A stretch of 64,000 nucleotides of DNA, taken from an uncultured Clostridia bacterium. Lineage in GTDB: Bacteria > Bacillota > Clostridia > TANB77 > CAG-508. Every line of letters starts with the position of its first letter. Within the stretch, counting starts at the first letter, position 1. The notes beneath the pieces are model-generated. The model saw nothing but the letters and a program-made list of their open reading frames with translations, was not told the DNA's origin and did not search any database. Shown here in pieces: positions 1,879-45,553 of the stretch. Made by a program: the position numbers and the translations under genes. Location of the stretch: assembly GCA_944386325.1 (NCBI GenBank), contig CALXAP010000002.1:63030-127029 (forward strand), read 5' to 3'.

Positions 1879-4800
1879 CTATTCTTTTTTATGACTTTTT
1901 CTTTTAATCATTACAATTATTCCTGCTATTATAATAAGTATTAATGCTCCTGCTACATAATATTTTGCAATTTCTCCTCCTAATGGTTTAGTTATATTAA
2001 TTTTTCTTGCTTGAGTATTATCAACTTCATTATTATCGCTATTTGGTACATAATTTCCTGGTATTCCTCTGTATGCTCTTCTTCCTGCTTCATTACTTCT
2101 TTGAACAATTTCTAAACAATTTTGGAATGATAAAGTTGCATTATCATCTTGCGGTGATATTACTTTACTTAGCACTATATACCCAACTATTTCTGTCTGA
2201 CCGCCTTCTTGTGCTTCTTTACTACCTATTGGATATAATTCTACTCTTAATCCATCTGTTTGCAATATTTGTAAGTTTTGCTCTTCTACTGCTTCTAATA
2301 CATTATCAGCAACTTTATTTGCTTGTGTAGTTTCTATTCTTTCCCATATATCTCCATTTTCTTCTGCTTTTTGTTCTTCTGGTTTATAAACAAAATTGCT
2401 ACTAATGTATTGATATACCCAATCAGCTTGTGTTGTAATAGTTTCATCACTTGCACCTTCTACATAATTGCTCATTTTATCTATCTCGCCAGTATTTCTT
2501 ATTCTAACTAGATATTTAACACGGATTTCTGCACCATGCATAATTTCCTCATCCATATATACTGAAATTGGAACTTTTTCTTCTTCTTTATCTAAACCAT
2601 TAACATTTTTATTAACACCTTTTTCTGTATCAACTATAATCTGTCCATCACTTAATTTTACTTGTATACCTGCTACTTCTTCTTCTAGACTCAATTCTGC
2701 TTTTGGTCTTTCTCTTAAACCTAGATTTACTTGTTCTACTTTATCTTTTAATACATTATTAGGAACAAAATTAACAGATTTCGTCTGTGCAGACATCTTT
2801 GTTTCTTCTGCTAATTTTCTAATTGCTTCTGTTTTTTGCTCTCCTTCCTTCATATTTCTTATACCTTCTACATCTAGCATTAATCCTAATTCTAGGTCAA
2901 ATGTACTAAATTTATCCATTTGTGCTATTCTTTCATCTTGATTATCTTTACCATAACTTCTATCCTCTTTTATAATACATTCTTCTAAAATTTGTTCATA
3001 TATTTTACCAACTATATCATTATACATATTTTCTGTATTAATTCTATATACTTTTCCTCTTCTTGGATTTGATTCTGTACCAAAAATCTGTTCAGAATCC
3101 TTTGTTAATATTGTAATTAAATCAATATTATTATCATCTAACTCTTCAATTTCTTTAATAACATCTTCATTTGTCTCTTCTGTTGGTCTACCATCTGTAA
3201 TTAAAATAATTATTTTCTTTCTACTATTATTGCTATATTCTGAAGACATTAAATTTATTGCTTTTTGTATACTTGTTTCACCTTCAGAAGTTAAACCTCT
3301 AATTGTATTTTGTAAATCTGTTTGATTGTCTCCTAATTGACCTAGTACCGCCGCTTCACTATTATAAGCAACTAGACCTATTTTTACTCCTGATAATTGT
3401 TCATTTAATTTTCTAACCAATTCTATTGCTGCTCTTTTTTCTTGATTAATTGGCTCTCCACTCATACTATTTGAAATATCTAATCCAAGCATTATTTCTA
3501 CATCAGAATAATTATTAGTTGCATCTGTATCTTTATATATATCTTCTGTTGCAACAGCTTGATAATCTTGACCATTATATTTTAAATTGTGTTTTAGTTG
3601 TTCTTCTTCACCGTAAATAAATTCCACATGATAATTTCCTGCAGATAATCTACTAAATCTATATCCACCATTTAATTCTTCATTATTACTTATAGATAAT
3701 TGTCTGCCTGTTCTTGCCTCATCTACTTTTTTAGTTAAACTTGCCCCTGTTTGTGGATTTGTAAATGTTTCATACAATTCTACTCTTACATAATCTACTA
3801 GTGGCTCATTTCTTTGTCTTATTCCATCTCCAACTATTTGATTATTTGATAAAGTAACTGTATTATTTCCATGTCTTAAATCATCCCAAACATTTCCTTC
3901 TATTGTATTTCCATAACGATTATTTTCTTCACTATCATCATCCATAACTAATCTTAGATTTGGTGATCTGTCTTCATCATCTTCATATGTACTTTTATCT
4001 GTATTTGGATTCAAATTACCTGGTCTAGAATTTTCATCAATTAAACCAACTACACTTCCATCATCTTTATTAAATGTTCTGTAACCGTTAATTTCTGCTA
4101 TATTTGCATTATCACCTTCTAATATAACTGCATTATTGTTTTTATTTATTTTAAATATAATGTGTAACTCTATATATTTTCCATTTCCTACTTCTAGATT
4201 TTCTAAACTTTGTGTATACATTTTATTATATTCTGAATATTGATTACTTTGTCCATATTTTGAATTTTGACTCCAATCAACTTTTATCTTATTTTCATCC
4301 TGAACTGTTTCACTTTCTGTAATATTTTCAGATTTCACAACAGCCCATGATGTCATTTCAATATCTCTGTAGCTATCATTACTATAAATCAAATTTTTAC
4401 TATAATAATCTGCCAATTCGGTTATTTTTGCTATATCATTTTCACCAGTATTTCTAATAATCATCATATAATCTAAATAAACTTCTAATTCGCAATCATT
4501 TGCATTTGCCCATACAGACGCTAAACTATCATCCCATCTCCATTCATAATCAGCTCTATTAACATATTGAGTATAATCTGATATATCTTGTATCTGATCT
4601 TTATTTCTCAAATTTTTCTCATTATAAGCAAACCTTTGTGTCATTCCTTTTATAGAAAATGTAGATTCATATACATCTAAAGTTAGATTTTCATTTGTTT
4701 TCTCTCTTTCTGATAATCCTAAATCGATATTTTTTTCATCTTCTATCATCATATATTCAACTTTGTTAATTGTAAATTTTTCAGTTAAAGGATAATATAT

Positions 4801-7800
4801 ATTACTGCTCGCTGTATTAGTAGCAATTTCATATTGTTGTCTAGAAACTTCATTTTCATTTCTAGTTACAATTTTACTATTGTTACCTTCTTGTCTATAC
4901 TCTAAATTAGTTGTTGTTCCATCTGTTCCAATTGCTCCATTTGGAGTAATTTCATAATAACGATTATTTAAATTCTGTCTATTCTCTTTTGTCTCTTCTG
5001 CCTTTGAATTATTAATATATTTTTCATCATCTGGATTATTCTTATAATCTGTTACATTTCCATTTATTAAAAATTTTGTAGTCCTATATGTTTGTCCATC
5101 ATATTTGTATTCTATTTCATATAAACCAGGTCTTATATTTTCAAAACGATAGTTTCCATTTTCATCTGTGTAAACAGGATTTTGACTTGTTAATTTTGTC
5201 GTTGGAGTAGTTTCATCTTTTTTATATAATGTAACTTTTACACCTTTTATTTTCTTTTCATTATTCTCGTTAATTCCATTAGATATCATTTCATTTTGGT
5301 CATTCCACACATTTCCTTCAAAATTCATAGTTAACCTAATTTTTCCATCAATATCTAATTCTTGTATGTGTTTTTTATATTCTTTTTTTACCCAATCTAC
5401 TTCTATTAATTTTTGCGAATCTACTCTTCCTAAAGTAACTTTATCTGCAATTAAATAATATGTATGTCCTATAATATGTGCATCTTGCATTCCATGAGGA
5501 CAACTTCTTCCTCCTGGGCATCTTTCTGTTCTATATCCAGCTTTCCATTCTACTTCATTATAAGTTCCTTCCAAAATGCTATACTTAGCATCTATATTTA
5601 ATTCTTGATGTTCTATTTCTATTTTACTAATCTCTCTTACATTTTCATTTGCTTCATCATCTATCACAAAATAAAACTCTTCATTTGGATAAGGATATGG
5701 ATATTCTTCATATGTTTCTGCTCTATTTTGTAATTTTTTATTTTCATCATATTCAATATTCCATGTATTTGATGGTATTATATTACCATCCTGATCATAT
5801 ATTCTAATTTCTTTTATTCCACTAAACTCAATTTTTTCTCCACCTTTTTCTGTATAACTCCTTAAATAGTCTACTTTATATGGACCTATAATAATTTTTT
5901 TAGATTCTACATTGTATCCAACTACAGTATCTAATTTCTCCTGACTTGTTTTATATCCACCTTGTCCATCTATTTGTTTTCTGAATTTAGCATATTCTTT
6001 TGCTTCTATAGATATTTTATTATCTGGAGCTGAAGCCCCCTCATTTATACCTATTGCATACATTGCCAATTGACTTTGTGATTGTAAACTATTGTTTTCA
6101 TCTAAGAAAGATAATATATATGCTTCTTCATCTGTTGCATTTCCCTCTTTTCCTTCTCTTATAGGTGGAATTGTTTCAAAATATTTTCCAATAGAATGAC
6201 TCTTTGTATCTGTATAAATATTTTTTAAATTCGTACCATCTTCAACATACTTTTCACCTATTATTTGACCTCTATATGGATTTTTTACATACATCTTAAA
6301 GTCTCCGCTTTCCACTGTTGCATCAAGTTGTGTTCCATTACTCATTGCTGGAATATGTACCCCATTTGCAATACAATATAAATATTTATCTTGATCTACT
6401 TCCTCTTCTGGTATAAATCTTCCACCATCTGGCTCTAATTTTTTAGAAATCATAAATCCTAATCTTGCAGGCTCTATTTGTGTTGGATATTTACCTTCTG
6501 TTGTATTAAGTGTAAAATACACACCATGATGACTATAACTTATTCTGTCATATTCTAGGCCCTCTGGTATATTTATATTATAAGTAAATTTATGAGTTTC
6601 ACCTTGACTCATAGTATAATTGTTTAATACTATAAGAAAGCTTTTTACTTTGCTAAAATCCCTAGGTGTCATTGTCCATCCATTCGATGAATCATTTAAA
6701 TCTTTAGTAGCATTTATTTTTTCTGAATAATACACTTTCGCTACACTTCTTAATATTGGAGGTACTGTAATACCTTCATTTGTCATTGTTGTACTGTAAT
6801 CTGATCCTATGTCTTTTCCATTAATAACATATTTTGAGCCTTCTGTTGGTATTATACCTAATATTGAAATCTCACTAATTACTCCAGAATAGTTATTTGT
6901 AATATTAACCTCTACTGTAGCAGTTCTTTGATCTTTTGCAACTTCAGCCACCCTAGGAGATACAGCAATACTTCCTTCATCATCATAGTTTAAACCTCTC
7001 TGCCCTGTTACTAGTGAATTTGATGCAATCAATGCAATTGTTCTTTCTGTTGTTCCTATCTTTTCATCTATATTATTATTTTCATTTACATCATAGATAT
7101 CACTTACTATGTCTGGTTCATAATCTACACCAATTTCATTATATGTGTACAATTCTAATTCTTCATCTTGAGTTGGCGAACCTGGATTTGGTGTTATTGT
7201 ACAATCTAGATATATTAGGAAATATTGTGGGTTATCATTTTTTGTTTTTATTTTAACAAAAACACTTCCCTCACTATAGTATTTATAATAATTTTCTATT
7301 TTTACATTAGGGTTATCTGTTGTAATATTTTTTATTTCCACATCCGCTATATCTGGTGGAAATTTTAATAAAAATTGTCCATTTTTCCATGGAGATATGA
7401 TATCAGTATATGAATCAAACTTATTTTTTGGTACACCGATTCTTATTTGCATATCTTGTGATTTTTGTGTAGATACAACTGTTTCATCACTATAATAATC
7501 ATTGTTATCTATATCCATACCAACCAAAGATATTGGATATATATATCTTGCTGTATCATCAGTACTTAAATGCCACTCTCCTGCATATGCTTCTACATAA
7601 CTTTCTATGTAAGAAAATGTATCAAATACTTCTTTAGAATAAGTGTTTGTAATATATGTATCATCTAATTCTTTTGTATTATATACATAAAAATATGAGT
7701 TTGTATTATATAATTTACTCGTTTCCACCCTTATGTGTTTGACTGGTTTTTTATACCAATAAGGATTATTTTCACTATACCTATTCATATTTTGTATATT

Positions 7801-9315
7801 AAAAGTTACTAATAATTCATTAGTATCATCATTATATACATTTATCCAACCATCATTTCCAAGCATATTTATATTATATGGTATATATATTGCAGCATGT
7901 TTACTGAAATTTTCCATACTTATTTGTTGTCCATCTGTAGTAATGATTACATCTGATTTCTTTTTCTCTCCATTTGGAGTCTCTTTTAATACTACACCAT
8001 TTTCATAAACTCCACCATCGCCATCAAATCTCCATTCTACTGGATAATAATCTCCTGTTTCATTTTTTGATAAATTGTTATATATTCTTGCTGGCTTTTC
8101 TTTTGATACATAATACATACTATAAATATCATAACTATATAAACTTGATAAATAATAACCTACATCTATGTATAAATATGGTCTTACTATTGGCACAGGT
8201 CTTGGTCTAAATAAATTTAAATTTATTGTAGCTTGTACTTCATTAGATTTATATGGGTTCTGAAATTCCCCACTTGGATTATTGTACGAATTTATATAAA
8301 CTTTTACTGGAACTTGCACATCTTGTTCACCCAAAACCTTATTATATGCTTCCATAGGATATGTTACATTTAATCTTACATACTTATAATAAGAATAATC
8401 ACTAAACCCTCCTGTTTTTTCAATAACAAAATTGCCTGTGTTGCTATCATATGTTACTTTACTATAACTGTCTGTTGTTGTTACACTTAAAGCACTATAT
8501 CCATTTAACTTTGGTATTGTTCCTTCTATATGCATATCTTTAGTCTCTAATTGCCTTATATTCTCTCTTATAGATATCTCAAAATCTACTTCTATGACAT
8601 TTTCTTCTTCATTTACCATATCATCTTCATAATTATATTGATTAGTATCGCTAGAATCCCATTGAATTTTATTTGTACCATACCAATCGACTTGGAAATT
8701 TACTGTCTTTTGTATTGGTGTTTCTTTAGTTGTACCATCCGGTAAAGTTTCTACATGTATACCTGTTAAAGTTATAGAATTTATTTTTGAATATTTGTCT
8801 CTATTTAGCGGTGTACTTGGTGATTTTACTATACCAGATATGAGCATATGTGTTCCATTTTCTAAATTATTAAATTCTATATTACTTATATTACTTCCTA
8901 TATAATTATCTTTTATTTGAGTATCTGCTGCTAATTGTGTTGTTAATTGGAAATTTCCACCATAGTTAGTACCATTAACAGTTATTCTTCCATCTTTTAA
9001 ATAACCATTTTCAACTACTTCTAACTCCATATATAAAGTATCTGATTCTCCTATTTCTTTACATGTTCCTCTTACCTTATCTGCAATTCCATCATTGTTC
9101 AAATCTTTGAAAAAATATGAATCAAACTTAACATATTGAGAATTCGTAGATTCTTCTCCTATTTGTACTTGAGGGTATGTCATTGCTAAAATATTTTCTG
9201 GTCTACTATTTATAATCATATTATTTATTTGTTTATAGCATAATGGTATTAGAGCTATTATTATCATTATAACTCCTAATATCATAATTATTTTTTTATA
9301 TTTCTTTATTTTCAT
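1879..9315 (-). CDS. giant (2478 aa) cell-surface adhesin-like protein with a vWA domain and Cna-B-type repeats; C-terminal TM anchor
   Basis: Single uninterrupted ORF with an N-terminal signal/TM (MKIKKYKKIIMILGVIMIIIALIPLCY). MIDAS-type vWA motif DISNSMSG...ILITDG. Prealbumin/Cna-B-like segments (VKVTLYKKDETTP...NGNYRFENIRPGLYEIEY; GGYRFSRLSAGNYHVEF). C-terminal hydrophobic helix plus KRKSHKKE tail. No LPXTG seen. Confidence 0.75.
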   Translation of the reverse strand: MKIKKYKKIIMILGVIMIIIALIPLCYKQINNMIINSRPENILAMTYPQVQIGEESTNSQYVKFDSYFFKDLNNDGIADKVRGTCKEIGESDTLYMELEVVENGYLKDGRITVNGTNYGGNFQLTTQLAADTQIKDNYIGSNISNIEFNNLENGTHMLISGIVKSPSTPLNRDKYSKINSITLTGIHVETLPDGTTKETPIQKTVNFQVDWYGTNKIQWDSSDTNQYNYEDDMVNEEENVIEVDFEISIRENIRQLETKDMHIEGTIPKLNGYSALSVTTTDSYSKVTYDSNTGNFVIEKTGGFSDYSYYKYVRLNVTYPMEAYNKVLGEQDVQVPVKVYINSYNNPSGEFQNPYKSNEVQATINLNLFRPRPVPIVRPYLYIDVGYYLSSLYSYDIYSMYYVSKEKPARIYNNLSKNETGDYYPVEWRFDGDGGVYENGVVLKETPNGEKKKSDVIITTDGQQISMENFSKHAAIYIPYNINMLGNDGWINVYNDDTNELLVTFNIQNMNRYSENNPYWYKKPVKHIRVETSKLYNTNSYFYVYNTKELDDTYITNTYSKEVFDTFSYIESYVEAYAGEWHLSTDDTARYIYPISLVGMDIDNNDYYSDETVVSTQKSQDMQIRIGVPKNKFDSYTDIISPWKNGQFLLKFPPDIADVEIKNITTDNPNVKIENYYKYYSEGSVFVKIKTKNDNPQYFLIYLDCTITPNPGSPTQDEELELYTYNEIGVDYEPDIVSDIYDVNENNNIDEKIGTTERTIALIASNSLVTGQRGLNYDDEGSIAVSPRVAEVAKDQRTATVEVNITNNYSGVISEISILGIIPTEGSKYVINGKDIGSDYSTTMTNEGITVPPILRSVAKVYYSEKINATKDLNDSSNGWTMTPRDFSKVKSFLIVLNNYTMSQGETHKFTYNINIPEGLEYDRISYSHHGVYFTLNTTEGKYPTQIEPARLGFMISKKLEPDGGRFIPEEEVDQDKYLYCIANGVHIPAMSNGTQLDATVESGDFKMYVKNPYRGQIIGEKYVEDGTNLKNIYTDTKSHSIGKYFETIPPIREGKEGNATDEEAYILSFLDENNSLQSQSQLAMYAIGINEGASAPDNKISIEAKEYAKFRKQIDGQGGYKTSQEKLDTVVGYNVESKKIIIGPYKVDYLRSYTEKGGEKIEFSGIKEIRIYDQDGNIIPSNTWNIEYDENKKLQNRAETYEEYPYPYPNEEFYFVIDDEANENVREISKIEIEHQELNIDAKYSILEGTYNEVEWKAGYRTERCPGGRSCPHGMQDAHIIGHTYYLIADKVTLGRVDSQKLIEVDWVKKEYKKHIQELDIDGKIRLTMNFEGNVWNDQNEMISNGINENNEKKIKGVKVTLYKKDETTPTTKLTSQNPVYTDENGNYRFENIRPGLYEIEYKYDGQTYRTTKFLINGNVTDYKNNPDDEKYINNSKAEETKENRQNLNNRYYEITPNGAIGTDGTTTNLEYRQEGNNSKIVTRNENEVSRQQYEIATNTASSNIYYPLTEKFTINKVEYMMIEDEKNIDLGLSEREKTNENLTLDVYESTFSIKGMTQRFAYNEKNLRNKDQIQDISDYTQYVNRADYEWRWDDSLASVWANANDCELEVYLDYMMIIRNTGENDIAKITELADYYSKNLIYSNDSYRDIEMTSWAVVKSENITESETVQDENKIKVDWSQNSKYGQSNQYSEYNKMYTQSLENLEVGNGKYIELHIIFKINKNNNAVILEGDNANIAEINGYRTFNKDDGSVVGLIDENSRPGNLNPNTDKSTYEDDEDRSPNLRLVMDDDSEENNRYGNTIEGNVWDDLRHGNNTVTLSNNQIVGDGIRQRNEPLVDYVRVELYETFTNPQTGASLTKKVDEARTGRQLSISNNEELNGGYRFSRLSAGNYHVEFIYGEEEQLKHNLKYNGQDYQAVATEDIYKDTDATNNYSDVEIMLGLDISNSMSGEPINQEKRAAIELVRKLNEQLSGVKIGLVAYNSEAAVLGQLGDNQTDLQNTIRGLTSEGETSIQKAINLMSSEYSNNSRKKIIILITDGRPTEETNEDVIKEIEELDDNNIDLITILTKDSEQIFGTESNPRRGKVYRINTENMYNDIVGKIYEQILEECIIKEDRSYGKDNQDERIAQMDKFSTFDLELGLMLDVEGIRNMKEGEQKTEAIRKLAEETKMSAQTKSVNFVPNNVLKDKVEQVNLGLRERPKAELSLEEEVAGIQVKLSDGQIIVDTEKGVNKNVNGLDKEEEKVPISVYMDEEIMHGAEIRVKYLVRIRNTGEIDKMSNYVEGASDETITTQADWVYQYISSNFVYKPEEQKAEENGDIWERIETTQANKVADNVLEAVEEQNLQILQTDGLRVELYPIGSKEAQEGGQTEIVGYIVLSKVISPQDDNATLSFQNCLEIVQRSNEAGRRAYRGIPGNYVPNSDNNEVDNTQARKINITKPLGGEIAKYYVAGALILIIIAGIIVMIKRKSHKKE

Positions 9316-10928: not shown

Positions 10929-12233
10929 CTACCTTACACAAAACACCGCATATAGTGGAATTGATTTTATATTATTCTCAAATCCAAAATTTCTAGTTGA
11001 AAATCTTATTCCATATTTAGGTCTATAATATTTCATATACATATTTAAACTAACTGATCTTACATTATTTCCGCTTTTTACCTCTATTGGAATAATTCCA
11101 TCTTCTTCACTATACAAAACAAAATCTATTTCAGCATTTCTATTAGAAGACCAATAATATAGTGATTCACCTTTAGAACTTATTTCTTGTGCTATATAAT
11201 TTTCTGTAATAGCACCTTTATAAAGAAAAGTTCTATCAAGCATTATATCTGTATATCTTATTTCGCTCATACTTGTTAATATTCCTACATCACTTAAATA
11301 TAACTTAAACATATCTTCATCTATATATACTTTAAGCGGTATTTCCATTCTTTTTGATTTATAATTTATTAAAATCATCCTAGATGCTACTAGCCAATCA
11401 ATTGAACTTTCATATTTTCTTTTTCTTCCTGTTTCTTCTACAAAATTATATTGAAAATTCTTATTTTCTTTAGCTAACTGACTAGGAATGTTTTTATATA
11501 TTTTCTCAATTTTAACAGTTTCTAAACTGCTTTTTACATATTTTTGCATATCTGCAATGTACATATCTTTTATATCTGAAAGAATGTGAGAATCGAATTT
11601 TAATATATCTTGATTATTCTCTATAAAATTGTTTACTGCTTCTGGCATACCTCCCACGCACAAATATTTCCTATATAGTTCTATTGCTTTTTCATGAGCA
11701 AAATCAGGCATTTTAGACATTGATTTATAACATTCTTCTATTTTATTTTTTAACATTTCATTACCAGTAGCTATTAAAAATTCTTCAAAATTCATTGGAT
11801 ACATATATTCTATTCTAATTTTTCCAACAGGAAATGAACTTTTAAACCTATTAATTTTAACACCTAACAAACTTCCTGCACATATTATTTTATAGTTTTT
11901 CTCTGATTCATTAAAATATTTAAGTGATACAATAAAATTTTCGCTTACTTGTATTTCATCAAAAAACATTATTGTTTTTTCTATATCTATCTTTTTACCT
12001 ATATATAATTCCAAATTTTCGATAATCTTTGTATCATCAATTGTTTGCTCAAATATATTTCTTACATCATTACTTTTTTCTAAATTAAAATATAAGTATT
12101 GTTCAAAATTTTCTTTAGCAAATTTTTCTAAAATATAAGTTTTTCCAATCTGTCTTGCTCCTACTACCATTAATGGTTTTTTCATTCCAGTTTCTTTCCA
12201 TTCCATTAATTTATTTTCAAATAATCTTTTCAT
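10929..12233 (-). CDS. AAA family ATPase (DUF4143-type, archaeal-ATPase-like)
   Basis: 434 aa. Walker A VVGARQIGKTYIL near the N-terminus. Overall pattern matches the widespread AAA+DUF4143 ATPase family. Confidence 0.65.
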   Translation of the reverse strand: MKRLFENKLMEWKETGMKKPLMVVGARQIGKTYILEKFAKENFEQYLYFNLEKSNDVRNIFEQTIDDTKIIENLELYIGKKIDIEKTIMFFDEIQVSENFIVSLKYFNESEKNYKIICAGSLLGVKINRFKSSFPVGKIRIEYMYPMNFEEFLIATGNEMLKNKIEECYKSMSKMPDFAHEKAIELYRKYLCVGGMPEAVNNFIENNQDILKFDSHILSDIKDMYIADMQKYVKSSLETVKIEKIYKNIPSQLAKENKNFQYNFVEETGRKRKYESSIDWLVASRMILINYKSKRMEIPLKVYIDEDMFKLYLSDVGILTSMSEIRYTDIMLDRTFLYKGAITENYIAQEISSKGESLYYWSSNRNAEIDFVLYSEEDGIIPIEVKSGNNVRSVSLNMYMKYYRPKYGIRFSTRNFGFENNIKSIPLYAVFCVR

Positions 12234-12427
12234 ACACTTCCTCCATTTTCTTATATTTTAACATACTTTTTTTAATAATCAATAATTTTTGCCACTTTTT
12301 GCAGGATTGTTTTTAAAAAGATTGCCACTTTTCGCAGGGATATATCTGCAACCGATGGTTGCAATGAATAATGAATGGTGAAGAATGAAGAATGAATAAT
12401 TTTAATAATATTTAAATAAATAGAGAA

Positions 12428-12527
12428 GTATAAGAAGGATATATATAATAATTTAGAAGTCAAAGGCATTTAGGAAGACCCCAGCTATCATTTTGACGAT
12501 AAATTATTATATATATCCTTCTTATAC
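12428..12527 (+). repeat. long-stem hairpin element (family G), copy 1
   Basis: 27-bp inverted repeat GTATAAGAAGGATATATATAATAATTT / AAATTATTATATATATCCTTCTTATAC flanking a conserved 46-nt core AGAAGTCAAAGGCATTTAGGAAGACCCCAGCTATCATTTTGACGAT. The same element recurs at 14109 and 38414. Confidence 0.8.
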
Positions 12528-12675
12528 GGTTTGTTTTTTATACAAATTTTTATTTTAAAGATATTTCTATTTATTTTTTATATTATATCAAAATCTAGTA
12601 CTGCAGAGCTATTTTTCAAAATGTTAGACATATAAATTTTAGCTGTAAATAGTTAAATTTTGTTATTTTTCATTT

Positions 12676-13944
12676 TTAAAATTGCAAATATTTTATTATA
12701 CTCTTTGCAGCCTCTCTTCCAGCTTTACTAGCCCAAGCAACTGTACATTTACCACCAATTAAATCTCCACCTGCAAATACACCTTCTATATTTGTGTTAT
12801 AATTCTCATCTACTTTTACATAACCCTTTTCATTTAATTCTAATCCATTTTCTATCGCTAGTTTTTTATTTATTTTTGAACCAATTGCCATTATTACATA
12901 ATCCATATTTATTTGATAATTACTATTTTCTATATTAACAGGATATTCTCTTGTTTCTCCTTCTTTTTTTACTAACTCTGTTTTTATTAATTCTATTTTC
13001 TCTACACGATTATTTCCAATTATTTTTACCAAATTTGCTTTATGTATAAAATTTACTCCTTCATTTTTTGCATCATTAATTTCTTTTGGTTCAGCAGGCA
13101 TTTGCTTTTCTTCTCTTCTATAAATAATATTAACACTTTTTGCATTTAATCTTTTTACAGTTCTTGCTATATCTATTGCTACATTTCCTCCGCCTATTAT
13201 AGCTACATCTTTTCCACTATAATCTGGATGTTCATTATATTTTAACAATTCATTAGCACCATATACATTTTCTAAATCTTTTCCTTCAACATCCATAAAA
13301 CAAGAATTATTTGCACCAAAAGCTAAATATATAGCATCATATTCTTTTTTCAAATTTTCCAAGTTCAAATTTTCACCAAGTATATATCCATTTTTTACAT
13401 TTATACCTAAATCTACTATTTTTTCAATTGTATTATTAATCACTTTTTTATCCAATCTAAAATCAGGTATTCCATAATTTAATATTCCACCTAATTTTTC
13501 TTCTTTCTCATATATTGTAACATTGCATCCGCTTCTTGCAAGAAAAGCTGCTGCAGTAAGTCCACTAGGACCTCCACCTATTATTGCTACTTTTTTATTG
13601 CTTACTAAATTTTCTTTTAGATTTATATTTTTGTCTTTATTTGCATCTCCAACAAAAGACTCTAACAAACCAATATCCACAGGTTTACCCTTTATTCCTC
13701 TTACACAATTTCCTTCACACTGTTTACTGTGCGGACATATTCTACCACATATTGAAGAAAGGACAGTAGTCTCTTGTAAAACATTGAAAGCTTCTTCTAA
13801 TTTATCTTCTTTTACACATTTTATAAATTCAGGAATATTATTTCCTAGTGGGCAACCATTTTGGCATGGCTTTGTCTTACAATTTAGGCAATAATTTGCT
13901 ATTTCCATTATTTCATCTATTTTTTCCATAACTTTTCCTTTCAA
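12676..13944 (-). CDS. glutamate-synthase small-subunit family (GltD/NfnB/SudA-like) FAD/NAD(P)-dependent oxidoreductase with N-terminal Fe-S
   Basis: N-terminal Cys cluster CLNCKTKPCQNGCP...CGRICPHSKQCEGNC, followed by an IIGGGPSGLTAA dinucleotide-binding motif and a second GGGNVAID Rossmann motif. Confidence 0.7.
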   Translation of the reverse strand: MKGKVMEKIDEIMEIANYCLNCKTKPCQNGCPLGNNIPEFIKCVKEDKLEEAFNVLQETTVLSSICGRICPHSKQCEGNCVRGIKGKPVDIGLLESFVGDANKDKNINLKENLVSNKKVAIIGGGPSGLTAAAFLARSGCNVTIYEKEEKLGGILNYGIPDFRLDKKVINNTIEKIVDLGINVKNGYILGENLNLENLKKEYDAIYLAFGANNSCFMDVEGKDLENVYGANELLKYNEHPDYSGKDVAIIGGGNVAIDIARTVKRLNAKSVNIIYRREEKQMPAEPKEINDAKNEGVNFIHKANLVKIIGNNRVEKIELIKTELVKKEGETREYPVNIENSNYQINMDYVIMAIGSKINKKLAIENGLELNEKGYVKVDENYNTNIEGVFAGGDLIGGKCTVAWASKAGREAAKSIIKYLQF

Positions 13945-14108
13945 TATATATTTAATATATTAATTTTATTATACATAATTTTTTCTTTCAATTATTTTGA
14001 CCATTTATTCAGGAAAATTTATTTTTCATATTTTGCTATTTACAGCCAAAATTTTATATAAAGATTTTGATATAATTTTGAATAAGTAGGAAAATTAATA
14101 AATAGAGA

Positions 14109-14208
14109 AGTATAAGAAGGATATATATAATAATTTAGAAGTCAAAGGCATTTAGGAAGACCCCAGCTATCATTTTGACGATAAATTATTATATATATTC
14201 TTTTTATA
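14109..14208 (+). repeat. long-stem hairpin element (family G), copy 2
   Basis: Near-identical to the copy at 12428-12527. The right arm has a few mismatches. Confidence 0.8.
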
Positions 14209-14327
14209 CGATTTATTTTTGATGTGAATTTTTATTTAAAGAAATTTCTCCGAAGCGCGGGCGAACAATGTTCGCCCCTACAAATATATTACTATTTTTT
14301 TATCTAAATGTTCTACTTTATAAACAT

Positions 14328-19064: not shown

Positions 19065-19455
19065 AAACTCACCATAAGTATTTTATCATATATAACATTA
19101 CTCTTCTAGAATTGTGCATAAATTTTTTAAATTATTTATTGTCTTTTTGTAGTATTATATATAGCACAAAGAAAGACTAGAGTGGCATCTCTAGTCTTTT
19201 TTTGTGCCTTTTGATGGGCAAATTATTAAATTATCTTGTATATCAATTATATATTTTTTATTCTTTTTAGTCAACTATTTTTATATAAATCTTCCTGCAG
19301 AATATAACTATTCAGGAGTAGAATTAATATTTTCAGTTTTTCGAGAAATAGCACACTAGAACGGGCGAACACTGTTCGCCCCTACAAATATTATATTAGA
19401 TTTTTTCTATTTCATGTTTTACAGATTTTACCTCTGAATAGTTATCGCAGAATTT

Positions 19456-22042: not shown

Positions 22043-22326
22043 ATATCCACCTCTTTTATACTATTACACTATTTTAGTTTACTAGTATAGTATACTCTTT
22101 TTATTATATGCTGTCAATATTATTTATTAGTATTTTTTATATAATAAATAACTGATTACTAATAATAATTAAAATTTATATTTTTGATTTTTTTGAGAAA
22201 TGGCTTTGTAGTTCAGGCGAACACTGTTCGCCCATACAATTATTTTTCTATATTATGTTTTATAGATTTTGGATATTTACCATAACAAAAAACTGATGTA
22301 TTGAAACATCAGTTTTTTGTTTGTAC

Positions 22327-28237: not shown

Positions 28238-28417
28238 GTTTACAATTCACGGCATCAGATTTTGATATAATAATATTTCATAAATTTTTCGGCTCAATAC
28301 GATATTTAAGAATTTGTAATATATAAAAATCCAATGTAGGGGCGAACATTGTTCGCCCGCGCTACGAAGCTATTTCTAAAAAAATTGAACATATAAATTT
28401 TAGCCGTGAATTGTAAC
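28238..28417 (-). repeat. composite MITE-like intergenic element (reverse orientation) between acpP and plsX
   Basis: Terminal inverted repeats GTTTACAATTCACGGC ... GCCGTGAATTGTAAC. The interior holds the reverse complement of the E-module tail, the GC palindrome TGTAGGGGCGAACATTGTTCGCCCGCGCTACGAAG (28335-28369), and a reverse B module. Confidence 0.7.
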
Positions 28418-29562: not shown

Positions 29563-29718
29563 TTACTATTCACAGCTTATAAAATTATATATTCAATTTT
29601 TGAGAAATAATTTTATAGTGCGGGCGAACACTGTTCGCCCCTACAACTATATTTTTTTGTATTATGTTATATAGATTTTGATATAATTATATCAAAATCG
29701 AATGACGTAAATTATAAC
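29563..29718 (+). repeat. composite MITE-like element (modules A-B-C-D-A') with terminal inverted repeats, between plsX and tuf
   Basis: TTACTATTCACAGC ... GACGTAAATTATAAC termini. Contains ATATATTCAATTTTTGAGAAAT (B), the GC palindrome TAGTGCGGGCGAACACTGTTCGCCCCTACA (29616-29646), and TATAGATTTTGATATAAT (D). Confidence 0.75.
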
Positions 29719-34484: not shown

Positions 34485-34612
34485 TTTTTCACCTCCGCTA
34501 AATAAAATATATTACTAATATTCTCTATATTAGCATTGTATATTTTACCATTGTTTTAGCACTTAGTCAATATTTAGTGGAATTTATATCTTCAATTTTT
34601 AAGAAATATCTT

Positions 34613-34644
34613 TGTAGGACAGGCGAACACTGCTTTCCCCTACA
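34613..34644 (+). repeat. GC-rich palindrome family C copy, upstream of the rpsL operon
   Basis: TGTAGGACAGGCGAACACTGCTTTCCCCTACA, preceded by a B-like module AATTTATATCTTCAATTTTTAAGAAATATCTT. Confidence 0.7.
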
Positions 34645-34720
34645 ACTATAATATTAGATTTTATAAATCTTTTTGTACATATATTTTTTAGATAATAGAA
34701 ATTTAAATTTCCTATTATTT

Positions 34721-35071: not shown

Positions 35072-35322
35072 GTTACAATTCACAGCTAATAAAATATATA
35101 AAGATTTTGATATAATAATATTGAATAAATTTTGAATGCGATTGGAGATGTTTATAGAATTTGTTATATAATTTAATGAGGAATGTTCATGGGCAAAATC
35201 TTTGATTTTGAGCCTGAATGAAAGAGGCTCATTAAATTATTTTACAAATTCTTAAATATCGTATTGAGCCGAAAAATTTATGAAATATTATCATATCAAA
35301 ATCGTATGCCGTGAATAGTAAC
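35072..35322 (+). repeat. composite MITE-like element carrying the ~170-bp E module (copy 1)
   Basis: Termini GTTACAATTCACAGC ... GCCGTGAATAGTAAC. Interior nearly identical to 45204-45453 and 63361-63573. Contains the RBS + micro-ORF at 35189..35221. Confidence 0.8.
35189..35221 (+). other. conserved 10-codon micro-ORF MGKIFDFEPE inside the E module (copy 1), overlapped by the hairpin GAGCCTGAATGAAAGAGGCTC
   Basis: GAGGA 6 nt upstream of the ATG. Identical ORFs at 45319..45351 and 63440..63472. Confidence 0.35.
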
Positions 35323-35372
35323 AACTCTATTAAGAAGTAGAATTAATATATTCAATTTTTGAGAAATATCTT

Positions 35373-35404
35373 TGTAGTTCGGGCGAACACTGTTTGCCCC
35401 TACA
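35373..35404 (+). repeat. GC-rich palindrome family C copy
   Basis: TGTAGTTCGGGCGAACACTGTTTGCCCCTACA preceded by ATATATTCAATTTTTGAGAAATATCTT. Confidence 0.75.
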
Positions 35405-35457
35405 TCTATTCTATTAGATTTTTTCTATTTTAGATTTTACATCTAAATAGTTAAATT

Positions 35458-37693: not shown

Positions 37694-37852
37694 GTTATTA
37701 TAATTCACAGCTTATATAGTTACATGTTCAATTTCTTGATAAATAGCTCTGTTGTGCGGGCGAACACTGCTTGCCCCTACAGCTATTCTATTAGATTCTT
37801 CTATATAAGTTTTTATAGATTTTGATATAATTATATAGCTGTAAATTGTAAC
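37694..37852 (+). repeat. composite MITE-like element (A-B-C-D-A') between cassette 5 and the Nudix gene
   Basis: GTTATTATAATTCACAGC ... AGCTGTAAATTGTAAC termini. Contains TGTTGTGCGGGCGAACACTGCTTGCCCCTACAGC (37750-37783). Confidence 0.75.
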
Positions 37853-37853
37853 T

Positions 37854-38255
37854 TTAATTTAAATCTTTTAAAACATCTCTTAAAACTTGTTTAGATTCCT
37901 CAAATGTAATCTCATCAAGAGCTTTCTCTACATCAACCCAAATAATTTGTGCCACTTCTTCTTCTTGGGGTTTATCTTCACCAGAAACTTTTCTTGCTAA
38001 AAAATAAATAACATCTTTTATAACACCTTCTTCTGGTGAATATGTTTCTTTATATACTTTATCGCTAATTATTTCAACATCAATATTTGTTTCTTCTTTT
38101 ATTTCTCTTATTGCAGTTTCTTTATCTGTTTCATTTTCTTCTGGATGTCCCTTTGGAAATCCTATATGCCCTTTTTGATGTTTTACAAGTAATACTTTTC
38201 CATGATCAATTACAATACATCCACATGATTTATCTTTTTTCATAAAAACCTCCAT
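37854..38255 (-). CDS. Nudix hydrolase
   Basis: Nudix box GFPKGHPEENETDKETAIREIKEETNI (GX5EX7REUXEEXGU). Confidence 0.8.
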   Translation of the reverse strand: MEVFMKKDKSCGCIVIDHGKVLLVKHQKGHIGFPKGHPEENETDKETAIREIKEETNIDVEIISDKVYKETYSPEEGVIKDVIYFLARKVSGEDKPQEEEVAQIIWVDVEKALDEITFEESKQVLRDVLKDLN

Positions 38256-38270
38256 TTGAGTAATTTCTTC

Positions 38271-38304
38271 GCAATACGGGCGAACAATGTTTGCCCCCTA
38301 CATA
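38271..38304 (+). repeat. GC-rich palindrome family C copy, 16 bp upstream of the Nudix start
   Basis: GCAATACGGGCGAACAATGTTTGCCCCCTACATA. Confidence 0.7.
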
Positions 38305-38413
38305 TCTACTATTATTTTTTTACTAAAATATTTAAATTCTCTACTTTCTAAGTATTAATTAACTAACTATATATCTTTTTGTAGTAGCTTCTTATATTAA
38401 AAAATTTAGAGTA

Positions 38414-38509
38414 GCTATTAAAGTGATATATAAACATTTAGAAGTCAAAGGCATTTAGGAAGACCCTAGCTATCATTTTGACAATAAATGTTTATATATC
38501 ACTTTAATA
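38414..38509 (+). repeat. long-stem hairpin element (family G), copy 3, with a co-varying stem
   Basis: Stem CTATTAAAGTGATATATAAACATTT / AAATGTTTATATATCACTTTAATAG is a perfect 25-bp inverted repeat. Its sequence differs from copies 1 and 2, but the 46-nt core AGAAGTCAAAGGCATTTAGGAAGACCCTAGCTATCATTTTGACAAT is conserved. Confidence 0.8.
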
Positions 38510-38542
38510 GCGGATTATTTTATAAGTGAACTACTAATTACT

Positions 38543-38962
38543 CTATGGCAATACATACCTTATATTTCTAGTTATTGTTGTGCCTTTACCTATTTCCATA
38601 TTTACTGCGACAACTTGTTTATAATCAATATTTATTAATTGAAACGTACATTTTTTTACATGATTAACTAATGCTACTTTATTTAAATATATCTTATTAT
38701 CCTGAAAAGTATATTTATTTCCACTACTAAATTCAATAGAATTACTTGTTACATTTGTAACTTCATTATTTAATTTTTTTACTTCTTCTACAAAAGCCAA
38801 ATTAAATTTACTATATTCTGCAACTCTATCTGTTGCTTCATTCATTTGTACAATATTCGTATTAATAAATGATATTATAACTGTAACTATTCCTATTATT
38901 ATAGTAAAACCTACTACATACACAACTAAATTTGCAAGTGTTATACCTTTATTATCTTTCAT
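38543..38962 (-). CDS. hypothetical single-pass membrane protein
   Basis: 139 aa. The N-terminus KGITLANLVVYVVGFTIIIGIVTVII is reminiscent of a pilin-like hydrophobic N-terminus but lacks the canonical G-F-T-L-I-E. Confidence 0.4.
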   Translation of the reverse strand: MKDNKGITLANLVVYVVGFTIIIGIVTVIISFINTNIVQMNEATDRVAEYSKFNLAFVEEVKKLNNEVTNVTSNSIEFSSGNKYTFQDNKIYLNKVALVNHVKKCTFQLINIDYKQVVAVNMEIGKGTTITRNIRYVLP

Positions 38963-45203: not shown

Positions 45204-45453
45204 GTTATAATTAACGGCATAAAATAATATAAAGAATTTGATATAATAATATTGAATAAATTTTGAATGTGATTGGAGATGTTTATAGAATTTGTTATAT
45301 AATTTAATGAGGAATGTTCATGGGCAAAATCTTTGATTTTGAGCCTGAATGAAAGAGGCTCATTTAATTATTTTACAAATTCTTAAATATCGTATTGAGC
45401 CGAAAAATTTATGAAATATTATTATTTCAAATTCATATAGCGTAAATTGTAAC
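45204..45453 (+). repeat. composite MITE-like element carrying the E module (copy 2)
   Basis: GTTATAATTAACGGC ... AGCGTAAATTGTAAC termini. Micro-ORF MGKIFDFEPE at 45319..45351. Confidence 0.8.
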
Positions 45454-45553
45454 TATTTTTTTACATTATATACTTTTATTTTTTTTCAATCAATATCTTT
45501 TTCACTCAAAACATGATATAATATATTTATGTAAATTTAAAGGAGGGTTTGTT

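Follow-up and report, generated by a model that had tools for sequence, protein, structure and literature searches.

Stem-loop repeat families are common in the intergenic regions of bacteria, and the SLS families among them lie between genes, are often co-transcribed and have been proposed to act at the RNA level (PMC2267715). In pneumococci, the BOX, RUP and SPRITE repeats occur in clusters and are found inserted within each other, with a terminator-like motif present in SPRITE (PMC10969869). REP/BIME elements, which are extragenic palindromes with an orientation bias, have proposed roles in termination and mRNA stabilisation (PMC3733652). Here we analyse a hairpin repeat, family G, in a 64,000-nucleotide stretch of DNA from an uncultured Clostridia bacterium (the window, meaning that whole stretch) and in related assemblies. 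Its copies are always intergenic and are embedded in mosaics with other repeat modules. The host genome is unusually rich in modular intergenic repeats.

A pattern search of the window bore out the claim of a preliminary description that three copies have a 46-nt core in common: the core matches exactly three times, always on the + strand (12455-12500, 14137-14182 and 38440-38485), whereas 0 matches are expected by chance and 0 were found in 100 shuffles of the window. Each core copy caps a near-perfect inverted repeat of 27-28 bp, and the loop between the arms measures 44 nt in all three window copies. The arms of copy 1 (12428-12455 and 12500-12527) pair perfectly over 28 bp, those of copy 2 (14110-14137 and 14182-14209) extend over 28 bp with two G.T positions, and those of copy 3 (38414-38440 and 38485-38511) are perfect over 27 bp. 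The inverted repeats recognised earlier are therefore real but slightly longer than described, copies 1 and 2 having been assigned 27 bp (with the coordinates of copy 2 off by one base) and copy 3 a perfect repeat of 25 bp ending at 38509. The copy 3 stem had also been called completely different; it is instead homologous to that of copy 1 (22 of 30 aligned columns, with symmetric indels), the two stems having GATATATA..ATTTA in common and likewise TAGAG.AG in the outer flank. As + strand RNA, the 130-nt units fold with energies of -42 to -47 kcal/mol, and fold z-scores for family G on both strands range from -6.5 to -11.3, a stability equalled by 0 of 200 shuffles.

The repeat unit exceeds the hairpin and spans ~144-145 nt. 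The copy 1 unit (12415-12558) is 94% identical to 14097-14240 and 68% identical to 38400-38543, and is matched over its full length both by nhmmer and by a covariance model. The features of the copies and of the modules that adjoin them are as follows.

12340..12400, + strand: H module left of copy 1, a hairpin TGCAACCGATGGTTGCA followed by GAATGA-type repeats.
12415..12558, + strand: G repeat unit copy 1, subfamily A (A-rich left flank, hairpin, T-run, right flank), part of the 144-nt direct repeat D1/D5.
12415..12427, + strand: A-rich left flank of copy 1, AATAAATAGAGAA; the minus (gene-sense) strand reads TTCTCTATTTATT straight after the hairpin.
12428..12455, + strand: left arm of copy 1, GTATAAGAAGGATATATATAATAATTTA, 28/28 complementary to 12500-12527.
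12456..12499, + strand: apical 44 nt of copy 1, an invariant inner helix with a 25-nt terminal loop.
12459-12465 and 12491-12497, + strand: inner helix of copy 1, GTCAAAG and TTTTGAC, invariant in all copies.
12500..12527, + strand: right arm of copy 1, complement of the left arm.
12528..12539, + strand: T-run of copy 1, GG + TTTGTTTTTT, directly 3' of the hairpin.
12582-12596, minus strand: second site of the extended -10-like module.
14062..14076, + strand: extended -10-like module AGATTTTGATATAAT (TGnTATAAT); on the T-run strand, it precedes copy 2 by 33 nt.
14097..14240, + strand: G repeat unit copy 2, subfamily A, with its loop at 14138-14181 and T-run at 14212-14220.
14235..14301, + strand: D1 module, which abuts copy 2 and forms a GC-rich hairpin, GGGCGAAC-N3-GTTCGCCC, whose heads read (C)GAAG/GTAG..CTAC.
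38400..38543, + strand: G repeat unit copy 3, subfamily B, with its loop at 38441-38484.

The flanks of the hairpin resemble those of a terminator. On one strand, a T-run begins 2-3 nt past the stem and is conserved as GG(T/A)TT(T/C)(A/G)TTTT in all copies; the opposite strand reads T(T/A)CTCTATTTATT, which is U-rich, directly after the stem, and the A-rich left flank pairs with the T-run in RNAfold. Canonical terminators have short GC-rich stems and loops of 3-8 nt. A consensus terminator scan called no terminator at the hairpins, because their stem is AT-rich (<3 GC pairs near the loop) and their loop, at 44 nt, is longer than 8 nt. The hairpins are placed 34-150 nt past stop codons and ~170-195 nt ahead of the next start. 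Their orientation relative to genes is the same at 9/10 loci, and the better T-run is antisense to the neighbouring genes at 9/10 loci, so that host genes would use the weaker U-rich tail. The common orientation ascribed to all copies in the preliminary description thus holds within the window and breaks down elsewhere, with the copy on contig L003 reversed relative to genes and the loop on L002 inverted.

The surroundings of family G are modular and variable. The order G-D1 recurs at L002, L003 and L044, the H module also precedes G in L009 and L044, and in L009a and L044 G lies at the 3' end of a longer composite, which opens with the promoter-like TGnTATAAT module seen upstream of copy 2. 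The L004 copy is nested in an element with GGGACCAGCAAGCTTACAGTCTGT-type inverted ends. Matches to the extended -10-like module number 29 in the window, compared with 8 expected. Copy 2 alone has a strong -10, TGATATAAT, directly upstream (33 nt); sequences upstream of the other copies are unrelated, comprising a gene terminator in L003, the inside of another repeat in L004, the end of a gene in L006 and, for copies 1 and 3, sequence with no good -10. Copies 1 and 2 bracket the gene of a 417-aa oxidoreductase as direct repeats. The idea that this gene is an IS/TnpB gene was rejected, as its Pfam domains (Fer4_20 + Pyr_redox_2) are those of an NAD(P)-dependent oxidoreductase, and relatives carry the gene in synteny.

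Eight further copies were found in related metagenome assemblies, and the model alignment holds ten copies. In this alignment, 10/28 outer stem pairs display compensatory change on both sides and 99.6% of cells pair; 0/500 shuffles reach this level of covariation, and slid controls pair in 37-57% of cells. Stems of subfamilies A and B are ~73% identical, with indels mirrored in both arms. The covariation around a conserved loop proposed from three copies is therefore strengthened by the additional ones, whose stems stay complementary. The further step from covariation to a selected secondary structure does not follow as directly: compensated arms in a DNA palindrome are insufficient to demonstrate selection at the RNA level, because intra-palindrome correction yields the same pattern. 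The sole strand-specific evidence comes from the stem cells that depart from Watson-Crick pairing, which comprise 10 G.T and 0 A.C when every copy, the flipped one included, is read on the T-run strand. Because all 10 cells are G.T on that strand, they point to its folding as what is preserved, although the asymmetry corresponds to about six independent events or positions (two-sided p ~0.03) and mutation bias may contribute. The T-run strand folds better than its opposite by up to 9 kcal/mol, as illustrated by copy 2 (-36.7 kcal/mol on the + strand, which carries the T-run, vs -27.4 on the minus strand) and by L009a (-39.6 vs -30.0). A covariance-model search (R1, 215 kb) returned the known copies only, together with one unrelated terminator at 19151-19225.

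The tip evolves differently from the stem. Between subfamilies A and B it is 96-98% identical, compared with ~73% for the arms; one arm plus the flanks differs in 29-39% of columns vs 1/44 in the tip (Fisher p 4e-4 to 4e-6). The inner stem noted earlier within the core is present as a helix, but it is invariant in all copies, and the ten-copy alignment contains no covariation inside the tip. In the orthologous pair L044 and L039, the loop is retained at 43/44 positions, which is no better than the surrounding unique spacer (~95%), and loop SNPs segregate between strains. For these two reasons the case for constraint on the tip is drawn from the comparison of subfamilies A and B, a pattern that gene conversion could also produce. 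Several other accounts of the tip and stem were considered and rejected. A 12-codon ORF in the tip (MIAGVFLNAFDF) has no ribosome-binding site, is shifted out of frame by a 7-nt deletion in L006 and changes G to R in copy 3; a search of 5.8 billion proteins gave no counterpart of a 65-aa ORF that runs across the left arm. A K-turn at the junction of stem and tip would require a GA that is not conserved (G/A variable). Insertion of the core into pre-existing hairpins was likewise discarded, since in the window neither type of arm nor the flanks occur without a core.

A comparison of one orthologous locus reveals that the tip can invert in place. Downstream of mnmG, G lies between this gene and repeat modules in convergent orientation. 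With the D1-G site and its flanks the same, the window species has the loop in the standard orientation (5 assemblies), whereas a sister species has it inverted, both in 13 assemblies and in the reference MAG contig L002. Flipping within a species was rejected, as orientation is uniform across 13/13 assemblies of one species and across 5/5 of the other; because an assembly is a consensus, these counts cover the consensus orientation rather than minor subpopulations. Spontaneous small inversions mediated by hairpins are known from other AT-rich genomes; in chloroplasts, as in family G, a non-coding loop of up to ~50 bp between inverted repeats flips in place between close relatives, and no dedicated enzyme is needed (PMC12371153). 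Chloroplasts are a different type of genome, and the parallel covers how the tip flipped, not the role of the element.

Family G is confined to a narrow lineage. An 18-mer scan of 185,579 species genomes identified true copies in two MAGs only; there are 3 copies per 64 kb window and 5 in the reference MAG, or ~4-5 known per genome. The hosts are a few closely related uncultured Clostridia of ~25% GC, titled 'uncultured Clostridia bacterium' and 'uncultured Roseburia sp.' among NCBI MAGs. Signs of a wider distribution were dismissed, as 19-mer matches in JGI metagenomes all proved to be chance matches inside GC-rich genes, and so was a phage or plasmid origin, since blastn against 72,556 plasmids and 50,697 phages gave no match and viral contigs gave no hit. 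Contigs L015-L017, L019 and L020 end inside the family G repeat.

Presence of the element varies even among close relatives. The copy 1 and copy 2 sites are without G in species whose oxidoreductase is 87%, 84% or 79% identical, where the spacer measures 112 or 74 bp vs 398 bp in the window, and G is missing from the mnmG site in three lineages whose MnmG is 93-98% identical. The same-species strains L029 and L035 lack the copy 3 segment, and their allele holds 18 other bases, including a 13-nt remnant of an arm, and looks like a deletion. The L029 allele was rejected as a clean empty site, since an arm fragment is kept and no insertion boundaries were obtained.

We lean, with moderate confidence, towards reading family G as a lineage-specific, dispersed intergenic hairpin repeat of ~145 bp whose function is intrinsic termination in both directions or the stabilisation of RNA 3' ends; we infer the termination role from anatomy alone. 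When transcribed, the unit would fold into a long hairpin with an A-rich tract on one side and a T-run on the other, and this hairpin may serve as a two-way stop or 3'-end stabiliser between the host gene and transcription arriving from the neighbouring modules. The strand with preserved folding would be the one with the 3' T-run, antisense to the flanking genes at most loci. Complementarity of the arms would be maintained by selection on pairing, probably together with intra-palindrome correction, and the tip may flip through recombination or template switching between the arms. A terminator role leaves the near-invariance of the 44-nt tip unexplained; such a tip would imply a sequence-specific partner, whether protein or RNA.

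A minor but real share of our belief goes to an account at the level of DNA, in which family G is a palindromic repeat with no RNA function, either foldback or MITE-like or the target or product of an HUH/Y1-type or other hairpin-recognising enzyme. Repair or conversion within the palindrome would keep the arms, and the tip would persist as a recognition site of the enzyme or through homogenisation of copies. Pairing that is perfect or near-perfect over 27-28 bp exceeds what an RNA requires and fits such an account, as do the indels mirrored in both arms, the varying presence among strains and species, and the nesting with other MITE-like modules (for example, the L004 copy). The strong orientation bias relative to gene and replication direction resembles that of ssDNA-transposing elements, and palindromes typically undergo changes such as the loop flip and the deletion allele. 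However, variability is greatest at the outer ends of the arms and conservation greatest at the inner ends, the reverse of transposase-bound terminal repeats, and no target-site duplication was seen, there being no direct repeat next to the arms or to the 144-nt unit. The window yielded no related IS or transposase gene, and no IS end matched the element; a DDE_Tnp_1 gene at the end of L046 is unconnected to G, as the L046 lineage has no G at mnmG. Repair should, moreover, leave A.C as often as G.T, against a count of 10 G.T to 0 A.C.

A lesser share goes to a structured small RNA that would be multi-copy and produced from the T-run strand; its stem would present, or RNase III would release from it, the 44-nt apical domain for protein or RNA targets. 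Such an RNA would account for a tip far more conserved between subfamilies than the stem and flanks, for mismatches that are G.U only on the T-run strand and for the T-run after the hairpin; a perfect TGnTATAAT lies 33 nt upstream of copy 2 on the same strand, and the L009a and L044 composites begin with a promoter-like module and carry G at their 3' end. It is opposed by the upstream sequences, which provide no constant promoter or 5' context (L003, L004, L006, copies 1 and 3), and a free-standing gene for the small RNA of ~100 nt considered in the preliminary description gains no support for that reason. At the gathering threshold, an Rfam scan of the window yields only a tRNA, and at E<10 there is no meaningful family match over 12300-12700, the best being a plant miRNA precursor (26.7 bits vs a gathering score of 211), a generic long-hairpin match. 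No complement of the tip of at least 12 nt occurs in ~250 kb of sequence, the tip is without internal covariation, and the flipped copy retains its sequence though it would present the complement.

More specifically, the hairpin of the T-run strand could be a precursor cut by RNase III, in the manner of a pre-miRNA, releasing an apical RNA of ~44 nt that acts in trans on a protein or RNA, with the flipped copy making its exact complement. We regard this version as improbable. If true, it would endow the family with a built-in sense/antisense pair and make the copy set a small evolvable regulatory family instead of junk repeats or plain terminators.

It is very improbable that family G is an inverton, in which expression would be switched as a recombinase inverts the 44 bp enclosed by the 28-bp inverted repeats. 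Both tip orientations do occur at one orthologous locus, and an architecture flanked by inverted repeats would suit it, but orientation is fixed per species (13 and 5 assemblies) and neither orientation supplies a promoter: direct reading of the tip finds TTGACG and TTGACT boxes with no -10 at 16-18 bp, and a promoter scan found no site contained within it. A spacer of 44 bp is also too short for ordinary synapsis. No recombinase or invertase gene is present in the neighbourhoods, and the recombination site suggested earlier likewise finds no recombinase, integron or transposase context. The spontaneous small inversions of other AT-rich genomes (PMC12371153) provide a further argument against a dedicated switch. 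Finally, integron-type attC sites bounding gene cassettes, a reading prompted by copies 1 and 2 flanking one gene in the same orientation, are refuted, as the gene they enclose is a housekeeping gene, conserved and syntenic, that sister species carry without G, direct reading finds perfect arms with no extrahelical bases and no GTTRRRY/RYYYAAC boxes, the centre of G is conserved where attC centres are variable, and neither an integrase nor a cassette array is present, with the third copy 24 kb away.

Family G matters in several respects. It breaks short-read assemblies of these gut Clostridia, and it offers a clean, small example of the compensatory evolution of a long stem, with a tip that stays constant while the rest of the element diverges by ~30%. 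Its loop inversion in place, fixed between sister species, is a process well documented in plastids; to our knowledge, such inversion of a hairpin loop has rarely been demonstrated in bacteria. If the tip binds a specific partner, it would provide a handle on the RNA or DNA biology of a lineage without cultured members; otherwise, family G would be an ordinary terminator-like repeat.

Family G can be compared with several known systems. The likeness to REP/BIME (GTAG-/CGTC-tagged, RAYT-associated) resides in the neighbouring D1 module, not in G: REPs are high-copy, 20-40 bp long and have a conserved head tetranucleotide, whereas G is a low-copy 100-bp hairpin whose heads vary (GTAT, GTAC, GTAG, GCTA, GCAA). 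IS200/IS605-type ends and PATEs have two small subterminal hairpins and no inverted ends, insert beside a fixed tetranucleotide and show a strand bias that follows replication; G is a single 100-bp hairpin with a strand bias at 9/10 loci, no duplication, no tnpA/tnpB in the sequence examined and no fixed tetranucleotide evident by eye over its flanks. MITEs (Correia/NEMIS, RUP) resemble it in size, in having inverted repeats and no ORF, and in multi-copy occurrence, insertion polymorphism and nesting (PMC10969869). Family G is indeed small, non-coding, multi-copy and polymorphic for presence or absence, but it departs from MITEs in its inverted-repeat termini, which are its least conserved part: the outer 7-10 bp vary most (GTATAAG, GTACAAG, GTAGAAG, GCTATTA, GCAATAA) while the inner ends are fixed. 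It also differs from them in having no target-site duplication and no cognate IS, and arm sequences do not occur elsewhere in the window.

Like G, ERIC/IRU, bcr1 and the other SLS families of Petrillo and Cozzuto et al. are single long imperfect palindromes of 100-150 bp (PMC2267715). Those families conserve the whole palindrome, whereas the stem of G diverges with compensation around a fixed tip, in a few uncultured species only. Pneumococcal repeats of the SPRITE kind are, like G, small, non-coding, AT-rich intergenic repeats of a low-GC Firmicute, with stable terminator-like hairpins, clustered or nested with other families and variable among strains (PMC10969869). G has no sequence similarity to them, and its stem is much longer, a perfect 27-28 bp surmounted by a large conserved tip of 44 nt. 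Termination by G is putative, and ~4-5 copies are known per genome; the pneumococcal families run to about a hundred copies. Family G most likely adds one more family to the well-known stem-loop repeats of bacterial intergenic regions, of the SPRITE, ERIC and MITE kind, rather than representing a new kind of system.

The 46-nt core of family G, an intergenic hairpin with a long stem and a 44-nt tip, has three matches in the window, all on the + strand (12455–12500, 14137–14182 and 38440–38485), and none in 100 dinucleotide-preserving shuffles. Re-measurement of the inverted repeats found arms of 27–28 bp around all three cores with an inter-arm spacing of 44 nt in every case. The preliminary description was thus right about three cores in one orientation and the inverted repeats around them, and its hairpin coordinates were correct to 1–2 bases.

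Arms and neighboring genes of the window copies
12428–12455 / 12500–12527, + strand: copy 1, 28 bp, perfect; between an AAA_14/DUF4143 ATPase gene and a Fer4_20/Pyr_redox_2 oxidoreductase gene
14110–14137 / 14182–14209, + strand: copy 2, 28 bp, two G·T positions; between the same oxidoreductase gene and a UDG-family gene
38414–38440 / 38485–38511, + strand: copy 3, 27 bp, perfect; between a NUDIX gene and a 139-aa ORF adjoining mnmA

The 130-nt units fold on the + strand at −42 to −47 kcal/mol, compared to about −16 kcal/mol for shuffles (z-scores of −6.5 to −11.3 over both strands), and the repeat unit is longer than the hairpin (∼144 nt; 12415–12558 for copy 1).

When one genome for each of 185,579 species was scanned with an exact 18-mer, just two assemblies had true G copies. 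Five are in the MAG “uncultured Clostridia bacterium BRZ_MK__bin25,” from a sister species (contigs L002, L003, and L004, and a tandem pair, a and b, in L009), and the other assembly contributes a single contig, L006, of ∼22% GC and binned as “Roseburia sp.,” an assignment that looks wrong given this composition. In L006 (3683–3721), the core lacks seven nucleotides of the tip (CAGCTAT), but the arms are intact. The remaining 18-mer matches and every JGI metagenome match were chance matches in GC-rich coding sequence, and viral contigs, plasmids, and phages gave no match. The window's own species has an additional copy, 3′ of mnmG (L044), and several short-read contigs break off inside G. In the Rfam scan that had been proposed, G matched no family at the gathering threshold or at E<10; the proposed covariance-model search, with ten copies over 215 kb (the window and related loci), recovered the known copies but no new ones.

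Covariation was counted on the model-based alignment of these ten copies. In the outer helix (28 pairs), 15 pairs never vary, two vary on one side, and ten vary on both, while 99.6% of cells pair, confirming that stem changes are compensatory. None of 500 column shuffles reached the observed covariation values, pairing fell to 37–57% when the partner was slid by 1–3 columns, and RNAalifold agreed; one position occurs as U-A, C-G, and G-C, with a U-G intermediate. The inner helix (GUCAAAG/UUUUGAC) is identical throughout and hence uninformative on covariation. The copies form subfamily A (copies 1 and 2, L002, L003, L006, L009a/b, and L044) and subfamily B (copy 3 and L004). Although the copy 3 stem had been described as completely different, 22 of 30 arm columns match between A and B, indels in one arm are mirrored in the other, and the outer flanks can be aligned too, so the stems are homologous. 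Between subfamilies, 29–39% of columns differ in one arm plus both flanks, versus one of 44 in the tip (Fisher p of 4e-4 to 4e-6), which upholds the view of a conserved loop amid differing stems.

The stem mismatches are strand-asymmetric. With each copy read on the strand carrying the T-run that follows the hairpin (+ for window copies), all ten non-Watson-Crick positions are G·T or T·G and none is A·C; these cells are spread over at least six positions and thus represent at least six events, a small sample with a two-sided p of about 0.03. The copy with an inverted tip (L002) conforms as well, indicating that the asymmetry tracks the flanks and not the tip. As a result, the T-run strand outfolds its complement (−36.7 versus −27.4 kcal/mol for copy 2; −39.6 versus −30.0 kcal/mol for L009a). 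Leading-strand sequence usually shows an excess of C-to-T change, which we infer would give A·C on the T-run strand; that G·T is seen instead argues, within this small sample, for selection on T-run-strand pairing, as RNA or as single-stranded DNA. A palindromic mobile or recombination element acting at the DNA level only is a plausible alternative: it would account for the strand bias, the mirrored indels, and the perfect arms, but not for the 10:0 asymmetry or the variable termini.

The flanks resemble those of terminators. A conserved GG(T/A)TT(T/C)(A/G)TTTT lies 3′ of the stem on the T-run strand, T(T/A)CTCTATTTATT lies directly 3′ of the stem on the opposite strand, and the A-rich left flank is able to pair with the T-run. 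Judged by sequence, G is built like a bidirectional intrinsic terminator whose stem is unusually long and AT-rich and whose tip is large. A consensus terminator scan made no call at G because it requires at least three GC pairs and a 3–8-nt loop. Upstream of addB, a canonical GC-containing bidirectional terminator (GCACAAAGAAAGACTAGAG-TGGCAT-CTCTAGTCTTTTTTTGTGC, 19163–19204) indicates that the organism uses ordinary terminators too. The window has a GC content of ∼25%, and its + strand is strongly negative in both GC skew and AT skew; same-species contigs place it ∼80–150 kb from dnaA, with genes co-oriented with replication. All window copies are intergenic, and every sizeable ORF near them is on the minus strand; a stop codon lies 34–150 nt upstream of the hairpins and the next start ∼170–195 nt downstream. 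Relative to the adjoining genes, the T-run strand is the antisense one at nine of ten loci (all but L003). Most likely, G serves as a bidirectional terminator or RNA 3′-end structure that separates host genes from transcription converging on them out of neighboring repeat modules; selection would act on pairing of the T-run-strand transcript and the tip would have a putative sequence-specific partner.

This genome carries many repeat modules besides G.

Other repeat modules
D1 (∼67 nt, 11 window copies in one orientation): 14235–14301, 19339–19405, 22191–22257, 29598–29664, 34597–34663, 35357–35423, 37734–37800, 38254–38320, 54175–54241, 56691–56757, 63279–63345
D2 (242 nt, copies 90–93% identical): 35091–35332, 45222–45463, 63342–63583; also L002:1629–1913, L006:2874–3035
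H module (hairpin TGCAACCGATGGTTGCA, then GAATGA/GGTGAA-type short repeats): 12340–12400; L009:55–115 and 300–365; L044:12330–12400 (minus)
TTTTGATATAAT sites (examples): 12582–12593 (minus), 14065–14076, 28260–28271, 29676–29697, 37820–37831, 57675–57686, 63356–63367

The right flank of G merges into D1, a GC-rich hairpin (GGGCGAAC-N3-GTTCGCCC) framed by GTAG...CTAC, and the G-D1 order recurs in copy 2, L002, L003, and L044. To the left, on the T-run strand, G is preceded by the H module in copy 1 and L009b, by the 5′ half of D2 plus the H module in L009a and L044, by a perfect TGnTATAAT module in copy 2, by a gene's own terminator in L003, and by the interior of another inverted-repeat element in L004; where present, the H module lies immediately upstream of G. 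With such differing contexts, the copies share no constant promoter, and a free-standing sRNA gene becomes less likely; a processed sRNA would fit the tip conservation but meets the same difficulty. At the NUDIX gene, the D1 tail reaches the ribosome-binding site. Gram-positive LexA boxes are spaced one base wider than CGAAC-N3-GTTCG, and D1 is accordingly no match. D1 is similar to GTAG-tagged REPs (PMC3733652). D2 shares with G a long AT-rich stem and ∼45-nt tip; its inward-facing ends (AGATTTTGATATAATAATAT) are perfect extended −10 elements (TGnTATAAT), and its inner hairpin (25–29-bp arms) has a 47-nt loop with GAGGAA-N5-ATG and a 10–12-codon ORF (MGKIFDFEPE) that is probably not coding, since its length differs among copies. 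In L004 (5578–5790), the subfamily B copy lies between both ends of a further inverted-repeat family (GGGACCAGCAAGCTTACAGTCTGT / ACAGACTGTGC.CTGCTGGGA); a 169-bp segment opening with the right end of this family is present in L021 (11430–11600), inserted exactly 5′ of TCTCTATTTATT, and absent from L023 of the same species. Allowing one mismatch, TTTTGATATAAT has 29 window sites on both strands versus 8 expected, mostly within a longer module (..CACAGC..ATAAAATATATAAAGATTTTGATATAATAATAT); these are candidate promoters, transposon ends, or both.

The presence of G is variable. Three sister species, whose oxidoreductases share 87%, 84%, or 79% identity with that of the window, keep the UDG-oxidoreductase synteny, but G is missing from the sites of copies 1 and 2, and the spacer is 112 or 74 bp versus 398 bp in the window; the ATPase gene (10929–12233, minus) is missing as well. 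In all three, the oxidoreductase gene is followed directly by a 379-aa gene, and repeat modules lie on both sides of the ATPase gene in the window, which together indicate a lineage-specific insertion. The window also encodes a 2478-aa surface-type protein with SdrD_B, SpaA, and VWA domains (1879–9315, minus), in whose place the sister species has cohesin/dockerin, lectin-like, and Peptidase_C1 genes (L021:13288–21240), suggesting a variable cell-surface locus. Two strains of the window's species (L029 and L035) do not have the ∼200-nt segment holding copy 3; L029 retains a 13-nt arm piece (AATGTTTATATAT), so its state looks like a deletion and not like an unoccupied site. Lineages with 93–98% identical MnmG have a different spacer 3′ of mnmG and no G. 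That spacer encodes a 56-aa hydrophobic small ORF (MISRSTVECVLMLFITVLSIILIVDTMDLFIRHLQEFIGFLYKNIRIIIETYYFNF; L046:12052–12222, L048:4974–5144, L049:4973–5143) with a strong ribosome-binding site, then a GC hairpin terminator. None of the G sites examined showed a target-site duplication or a clean boundary of insertion.

The window's species has the same mnmG-downstream spacer, 6 kb from dnaA, as the species of BRZ_MK__bin25: identity outside the repeats is ∼95%, and the D1-G arrangement and its flanks match. The 44-nt tip in one species, however, is the reverse complement of that in the other, with 43 of 44 positions identical once this is allowed for. Tip orientation is uniform within each species (five and 13 assemblies, respectively), pointing to an evolutionary inversion across the 28-bp arms and not to visible phase variation. 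The non-coding DNA of plastids offers well-known examples of hairpin-mediated inversions, 4–50 bp in size (PMC12371153). Comparison of the two orthologous mnmG sites shows the tip to be conserved no better than the unique spacer around it, and tip SNPs segregate among strains; the evidence for tip constraint is thus the contrast between subfamilies A and B, which could alternatively reflect gene conversion between copies.

In sum, G is an intergenic stem-loop repeat of low copy number, restricted to one lineage and variable in presence; its arms are compensated, its tip is conserved and can flip, and its stem mismatches are strand-asymmetric. An inverton, given the uniform orientation, and an attC site were both rejected on the features tested; G also failed the defining tests for a MITE (conserved termini and duplication) and for a REP. 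It joins an established class, the terminator-like or stem-loop repeat families of other bacteria. ERIC is one such family with nesting behavior, and G is like it as a stem-loop repeat. The same nesting behavior is common to G and the SPRITE, BOX, and RUP repeats of pneumococcus (PMC10969869), as well as the SLS families (PMC2267715). G has no sequence relationship to any of these, and what is unusual in it is a fixed tip on a co-varying stem, together with a documented in-place inversion.
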